Assembly: GCF_003334315.1 (NCBI RefSeq)
Contig: NZ_QOWR01000048.1
Reading direction: 5' to 3' (one strand)
Source of the DNA: Escherichia coli
Lineage (GTDB): Bacteria; Pseudomonadota; Gammaproteobacteria; Enterobacterales; Enterobacteriaceae
Length of the DNA stretch: 36,812 nucleotides
Shown here: positions 22,706-22,860 of the stretch, one piece after another
Layout: each line of letters begins with the position of its first letter
How positions within the stretch are numbered: the stretch's first letter is position 1
Made by a program: the position numbers and the translations under genes
Notes under the pieces: generated by a model
Database searches by the model: none
Told to the model about the DNA's origin: nothing
Seen by the model: only the letters and a program-made list of their open reading frames with translations

Positions 22706-22754
22706 TGAGACGAATCTGATCGACGCAAAAAGTCCGTATGCCTACTATTAGCTT
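22706..22754 (+). promoter_or_regulatory. rprA promoter: RcsB-box-like element (22706-22720) and -10 TACTAT (22743-22748)
   Basis: TGAGACGAATCTGAT resembles the RcsB box (AGA...AATC) at about -35 to -50. The -10 hexamer sits 6 nt before the RprA 5' end. RcsB activation of rprA is established. Confidence 0.55.
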
Positions 22755-22860
22755 ACGGTTATAAATCAACATCTTGATTTATAAGCATGGAAATCCCCTG
22801 AGTGAAACAACGAATTGCTGTGTGTAGTCTTTGCCCATCTCCCACGATGGGCTTTTTTTT
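22755..22860 (+). ncRNA. rprA: RprA small regulatory RNA (rpoS translational activator)
   Basis: Sequence ACGGTTATAAATCAAC...GCCCATCTCCCACGATGGGCTTTTTTTT recognised as RprA, including its terminator hairpin and U-tail, between ydiK and ydiL. Confidence 0.93.

Follow-up and report, generated by a model that had tools for sequence, protein, structure and literature searches.

The 36,812-nt stretch of DNA analysed here (the window) contains, in the gap between two open reading frames, what looks like a gene for the small RNA RprA. The question raised by this locus is whether it is an ordinary, intact chromosomal rprA, and whether the sequence just upstream is a genuine site for the response regulator RcsB or a fortuitous match to a short and degenerate pattern. 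RprA couples the Rcs envelope-stress phosphorelay to RpoS, to curli and biofilm formation (csgD, dgcM), and to NarP control, and its promoter, PrprA, is the standard reporter for Rcs activity. A sequence-only reading had proposed an intact RprA with its terminator and -10 element over positions 22706-22860, preceded by an RcsB-box-like element at the expected position.

The identity of the gene can be settled first. The whole window was scanned against Rfam 15, with two matches at the gathering threshold: RprA, and a second sRNA, rydB. The RprA model (RF00034) matches 22755..22862 on the + strand with 115.1 bits (gathering score 70; E = 4.3e-16) and does so over its full length, model positions 1-108 of 108, without truncation; the covariance model did not fail, and the sRNA is intact as proposed. 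The rprA gene is accordingly placed at 22755..22862 (+), encoding an RNA of about 106-108 nt. Its start is that of the RefSeq rprA annotation, 22755 being the position at which the gene begins both in the MG1655 annotation (L001 473) and in strain H1, and its 3′ end by both Rfam and RefSeq is 22862. The interval originally given, ending at 22860, was therefore accurate apart from this slightly later end.

The surroundings are equally conventional. Over the 431 bp of 22560-22990, the window shows 100% identity to many RefSeq E. coli chromosomes; of 5426 complete E. coli genomes, 5424 contain this intergenic stretch. On identical DNA the RefSeq feature is “rprA: antisense sRNA RprA,” adjoining ydiK; in strain H1, which has the identical sequence, the gene order is ydiJ, ydiK, rprA, ydiL, ydiM. 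The ORF list of the window agrees, with YdiK (21457..22569) and YdiL (approximately 22998..23354) flanking rprA, and YdiM at 23454..24668. The ydiK-ydiL intergenic context expected for Escherichia and Salmonella is thus found here by both ORFs and RefSeq annotation. We put the probability that this feature is the chromosomal rprA, in the ydiK-ydiL gap of an E. coli strain, at roughly 97%.

Closer to ydiK, a perfect 11-bp GC-rich inverted repeat (ATCAGGCGGC TCT GCCGCCTGAT) occupies 22574..22598, beginning 5 nt past the ydiK stop codon, with no T run after it. It is probably a 3′ stem-loop or terminator of the ydiK transcript, and would shield rprA from read-through.

The closest characterized counterpart is E. 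coli K-12 RprA (RF00034; b4431, NC_000913.3 1770372..1770477), which has the same ydiK-rprA-ydiL locus, length, promoter, terminator, and pairing regions. The two RNAs are identical at 105 of 106 nt, the exception being nt 19, which is C in the window and A in K-12. In both the minimum free energy (MFE) and centroid predictions the RNA folds into a 5′ hairpin, an open center, and a terminator (z = -2.2). The 5′ hairpin (22759..22784 on the + strand, nt 5-30), on which the two predictions agree, has an A/U-rich stem of 11 bp and a 4-nt loop, CAUC; among genera the loop varies freely while the stem is kept. The terminator that the sequence-only reading had recognized is present as well: a scan of 22500-23050 found one site, at 22833..22860 (+), GCCCATC-TCCCAC-GATGGGC plus T8, with a stem-loop at 22833..22852 (7 pairs, 5 of them G-C, and a 6-nt loop) followed by TTTTTTTT at 22853..22860. 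Other species have compensatory versions of the stem (GCCTGTC..GACAGGC, GCCCAAC..GTTGGGC, GCCCTTC..GAAGGGC).

An RNAalifold consensus of 24 diverse homologues contained two elements: the terminator, with double changes at two of its pairs, and a small hairpin within the invariant core. It did not recover the 5′ hairpin among these 24, since alignment between families is poor in the 5′ half. With covariation this modest, the Rfam model was judged the better test.

Between the hairpins, the central single-stranded region at 22786..22817 (+; nt 32-63) contains the sequence that pairs with the rpoS leader; it is identical to that of K-12, and the pairing regions published for csgD, ydaM, and narP (approximately nt 28-75) overlap with it. 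In detail, RprA nt 28-45 and 60-97 are reported to pair with csgD, and nt 45-75 with ydaM (PMC3465796, which also summarizes the anti-antisense activation of rpoS by RprA); nt 30-70 pair with narP, and the last 47 nt form an active processed RNA (PMC9262595). All of the published pairing regions (nt 28-97) fall within nt 20-106, over which the window and K-12 are identical, so that the rpoS-pairing segment of the single-stranded center is, by this identity, intact.

Duplex prediction adds little to this. When RprA nt 31-78 were searched in windows along the K-12 rpoS leader, nt 32-63 did pair with -118..-93 (-23.1 kcal/mol), as the third-best duplex, but 28 of 100 shuffled sequences reached the score of the best one, and the known site was no better than the controls. 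Full-length RNAduplex of RprA with the 567-nt rpoS leader produced a 180-nt “duplex” with huge loops, again no better than shuffles. The case for rpoS pairing rests for this reason on identity to K-12 and on the literature. RprA expression, Hfq binding, and regulation of rpoS, csgD, ydaM, and narP have been documented in K-12 and Salmonella (PMC3465796, PMC9262595, PMC3708529); by analogy with these essentially identical sequences, RcsB dependence, Hfq binding, and target regulation would be expected in the strain from which the window derives.

Turning to the promoter, the + strand upstream of the gene, numbered with +1 at 22755, reads ...AAACTAA TGAGACGAATCTGA TCGACG CAAAAAGTCCGTATGCC TACTAT TAGCTT A(+1)CGGTTATAAATCAACATCTTGATTTATAAGC... 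The -10 hexamer noted earlier, TACTAT, is at 22743..22748 (-12 to -7), matching TATAAT at 4 of 6 positions. It is separated by a 17-bp spacer (-29..-13) from a -35-like hexamer, TCGACG, at 22720..22725 (-35..-30), which matches TTGACA at 4 of 6. Directly abutting this is the proposed RcsB box, TGAGACGAATCTGA, at 22706..22719 (+; -49 to -36, center -42.5), a site for the RcsB homodimer by its match to the published one. The published consensus for homodimeric RcsB boxes is TN(G/A)GAN4TC(T/C)NA (PMC7913699). Positions 22706..22720 read TGAGACGAATCTGAT, and the first 14 nt fit this consensus with no mismatches (an exact match to the pattern TNRGANNNNTCYNA), so that to call the element “RcsB-box-like” was an understatement. 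With the box at -49..-36 and the hexamer at -35..-30, the layout is that of an RcsB-activated promoter.

A scan for consensus sigma-70 promoters did not report the rprA promoter, since its hexamers match at just 8 of 12 positions and the threshold was 9. Weak hexamers are what would be expected of an activator-dependent promoter, and their quality fits the strict RcsB dependence of rprA transcription seen with E. coli PrprA-lacZ (PMC6298664). Two sites that the scan did report, at 22615, are probably irrelevant chance matches.

For the box itself there is a direct structural comparison. RcsB (as RcsB~BeF3) has been crystallized on a 23-mer from the Salmonella Typhimurium rprA promoter, CCTATTGAGACGAATCTGATCGG, whose end bases were altered and which is described as -33 to -53; binding to the Salmonella box sequence is documented by EMSA as well as by the crystal structure (PMC7913699). 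The equivalent 23 nt of the window, 22701..22723, read ACTAATGAGACGAATCTGATCGA and lie at -54..-32, the same position, with one difference from the native Salmonella sequence, outside the box. The 14-nt box and the next 3 nt (TGAGACGAATCTGATCG) are identical in the two, so that the window contains the very core that was co-crystallized with RcsB. The differing base is the one just 5′ of the box, A in the window and T in Salmonella, in a column that alternates between A and T across genera. The RcsB box of P1flhDC (CGAATTAGGAAAAATCTTAGGCG) shares the consensus and the homodimer binding mode with that of rprA, but is placed downstream of its promoter and represses, whereas the rprA box abuts the -35 and activates; in the first half-site, flhDC has GGA where rprA has AGA.

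A match to the consensus is not in itself a rare event. The pattern occurs three times in the window, where 1.34 occurrences are expected, and 18 of 100 shuffled versions had three or more; the count, not being significant, was not used as evidence. One of the other two exact matches, TAAGATGAATCCGA, is at 9614..9627 (+), consistent with chance expectation. The other, TAAGAATAATCTCA, is at 17154..17167, near the second sRNA gene of the window, rydB (17091..17151 on the - strand; RF00118, 81.6 bits against a gathering score of 50, full length). It falls upstream of rydB, 3 nt from the 5′ end of that gene and in the place of its -10 region, and may well be a chance match, given the 1.34 expected per window.

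As the pattern alone is not rare, independent evidence was sought in a phylogenetic footprint. A highly conserved 22-nt segment from the 3′ part of RprA, ATTGCTGTGTGTAGTCTTTGCC (22814..22835, +), part of the processed 47-nt form, was used as an exact-match query against one genome per bacterial species, and was found in at least 120 stretches. Among the matches listed, the genera with this core include Escherichia, Citrobacter, Enterobacter, Klebsiella, Pantoea, Erwinia, Serratia, Yersinia, Dickeya, Pectobacterium, Photorhabdus, Xenorhabdus, Providencia, Proteus, Morganella, Hafnia, Arsenophonus, and others. Together with the window and three RefSeq E. coli loci this made 124, of which 120 had the 200 nt of upstream sequence needed to be usable; 116 of these 120 are from other Enterobacterales species, among the matches listed. 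An exact RcsB box is found upstream of rprA at 116 of the 120 usable loci (again among the matches listed). By our estimate, chance would supply about 6.1e-5 matches per position over 200 nt, or some 1.5 loci in 120.

When the 113 distinct promoter sequences were aligned on the box, without gaps, the positions that the consensus leaves free were seen to vary (CGAA, TGAA, GGAT, TGAT, CTAT, GTGT, and others). A GAC two bases past the box (22722..22724 in the window) is nearly invariant over these promoters, at 1.9, 1.7, and 1.2 bits, and is probably the core of the -35; the 15 or so bases that follow it have about 0 bits. Beyond these, a TAnnAT stays in register, 23 nt past the end of the box, in most of the 113. 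Judged from these alignments, the pattern marks a conserved activator site, held at a largely fixed helical phase relative to the -10. What lifts the rprA box above the background of chance matches is, on these comparisons, its position, its identity to the crystallized site, and its conservation. The footprint neatly bears out the published box, and settles that the site lies where it had been proposed and not elsewhere; the sequence pointed to is the published PrprA site.

One further feature of the alignment lies outside the box: none of the 113 distinct promoters departs from A at the second base 5′ of it (22704 in the window; 2.0 bits). Neither this A nor the GAC belongs to the published 14-nt consensus, and the A may extend the RcsB site at the rprA promoter.

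The sole peculiarity of this rprA is that it is a minor allele. Compared to MG1655 there are three substitutions in the 431 bp: at 22607, 148 nt upstream of the rprA start (C here, A in K-12); at 22754, position -1 (T here, C in K-12); and at 22773, the RprA nt 19 already mentioned, in the apical loop of the 5′ hairpin (C here, A in K-12). A 95-nt probe spanning the second and third (22720-22814) has exact matches in 92 of the 5424 E. coli genomes. One including only nt 19 (22756-22850) matches 93, making C19 a 1.7% allele; another 95-nt probe including only -1 (22678-22772) matches 710, so that T(-1) is a 13% allele.

Neither of these two positions lies in the box, the hexamers, the stems, or the published pairing regions. 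C19 changes the hairpin loop from CAUA to CAUC, with the predicted structure unchanged (-25.9 vs. -25.8 kcal/mol for the K-12 allele). It is also the commonest state in other Enterobacteriaceae with the same RprA length, with loop CACC at 12 of 40 loci and CATC at 3 of 40; CGCC and CAGC are further loops with C at nt 19 in other genera. T(-1) is shared with E. coli O26:H11 strain 11368 and with the GTDB representative of E. coli (L063, SCPM-O-B-8794), while in most other genera position -1, in the box-anchored loci, is C.

Three other readings of the locus deserve comment. One would treat the box as a chance copy of a degenerate 14-nt pattern, the real control element being elsewhere. The pattern is certainly permissive, with six fixed and two two-fold positions, and its three occurrences in the window are unremarkable against the shuffles; the read-out of DNA by RcsB is, moreover, described as weak and promiscuous (PMC7913699). 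Such permissiveness would not lead one to expect a core (TGAGACGAATCTGATCG) equal to the oligonucleotide on which RcsB was both co-crystallized and gel-shifted, or a box present in exact form at nearly all of the usable loci listed, with its constrained positions kept and its spacing to the -10 largely fixed. The comparative data effectively refute a coincidental box, and we give it only the slightest chance of being right. The same slight chance is all that we would allow a small protein encoded here instead of, or besides, the sRNA. Mechanical translation does produce ORFs overlapping rprA, of 49 aa at 22802..22951 (+) and 58 aa at 22759..22935 (-), but the + strand ORF reads through the intrinsic terminator, no such ORF is annotated in RefSeq genomes of identical sequence, and what is conserved tracks features of the RNA (the invariant 22-mer, the compensatory changes in the terminator), while indels in the homologues break the frames. 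These small ORFs were rejected as genes.

The third concerns function more than identity: T(-1) and C19 might change promoter output, start site, RNA stability, or the function of the 5′ loop, leaving rprA functionally altered. The rarity of the combination and of C19, and to a lesser degree of T(-1), could be taken in this sense, as could the prevalence of C at -1 in most other genera. One argument against such a change is the location of both sites outside every element of known function (box, hexamers, stem, and pairing region); others are that fold and energy are the same for both alleles, that C is usual at nt 19 outside E. coli, and that T(-1) is found in other E. coli, including the two strains just named. 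An altered rprA is accordingly quite improbable, if marginally less so than the two preceding readings. A non-neutral allele, altering the start or level of RprA or some undescribed role of the 5′ loop (such as a loop-mediated contact, or a processing determinant), is just as improbable; were it real, it would amount to lineage-specific tuning of the Rcs-RpoS-CsgD circuit. Both substitutions are almost certainly neutral polymorphisms.

The preferred reading, then, is that of an ordinary chromosomal rprA with an RcsB-site promoter: an element already known, with no new biology, for which the value of the finding is correct annotation only. Its membership in the RprA family, the anatomy of its promoter, the identity of its box, and the deep conservation of the sequence and spacing of that box are all observed here, and the features that define RprA and an RcsB-activated promoter are all present, so far as they are open to testing in silico.

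From the literature, such a locus would be expected to work as follows. Envelope stress would switch on the RcsF/RcsC/RcsD phosphorelay, and the phosphorylated RcsB homodimer would bind the pseudo-palindromic box at -49..-36, just upstream of the poor -35, there recruiting or activating sigma-70 RNA polymerase at an otherwise nearly silent promoter. Transcription from 22755 to the intrinsic terminator would yield the Hfq-binding RprA of about 106 nt, whose single-stranded center would pair with the rpoS leader, opening an inhibitory hairpin and raising RpoS translation. The same and neighboring regions of RprA would repress csgD, ydaM (dgcM), and narP, and the processed 47-nt 3′ fragment would be active as well.

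The searches also turned up several variants of the locus in other genomes. In the Edwardsiella ictaluri and E. hoshinae loci (L022, L025), the core is present, but the 200 nt upstream contain no exact box, and RF00034 has no match at the gathering threshold; in Edwardsiella, either the gene is RprA-like and divergent or the promoter is arranged differently. Extra copies of the 22-mer core are found on other contigs of Enterobacter wuhouensis (L086) and of a Citrobacter MAG (L106), whose canonical rprA genes are at L085 and L107, respectively; these extra copies lack both an RcsB box at the usual distance and an RF00034 match at the gathering threshold. In the E. coli genome collection, two to three rprA matches are on plasmids, and a few genomes have two matches.

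Phytobacter massiliensis (NZ_HE578945.1) has two copies of RprA on one strand, separated by about 8 kb (L047 814..921 and L048 1165..1284). An RcsB box accompanies the canonical copy, which scores 115 bits; the other copy has diverged (77.8 bits), is without an RcsB box, and adjoins a phage-type C4 antisense RNA (RF01695, L048 583..671, - strand). A mobile element may have inserted at rprA in this species, carrying or duplicating the gene.

Finally, in the human commensal E. coli SCU-109 (L125, NZ_CP051733.1), an IS5 element (13874..14854) lies between ydiK and rprA (15008..15115), and homology to the window resumes only at 22748 (TTAG, -7). In this strain the RcsB box and -35 appear, from the alignment, to be separated from rprA; if so, it would be a natural promoter disruption.
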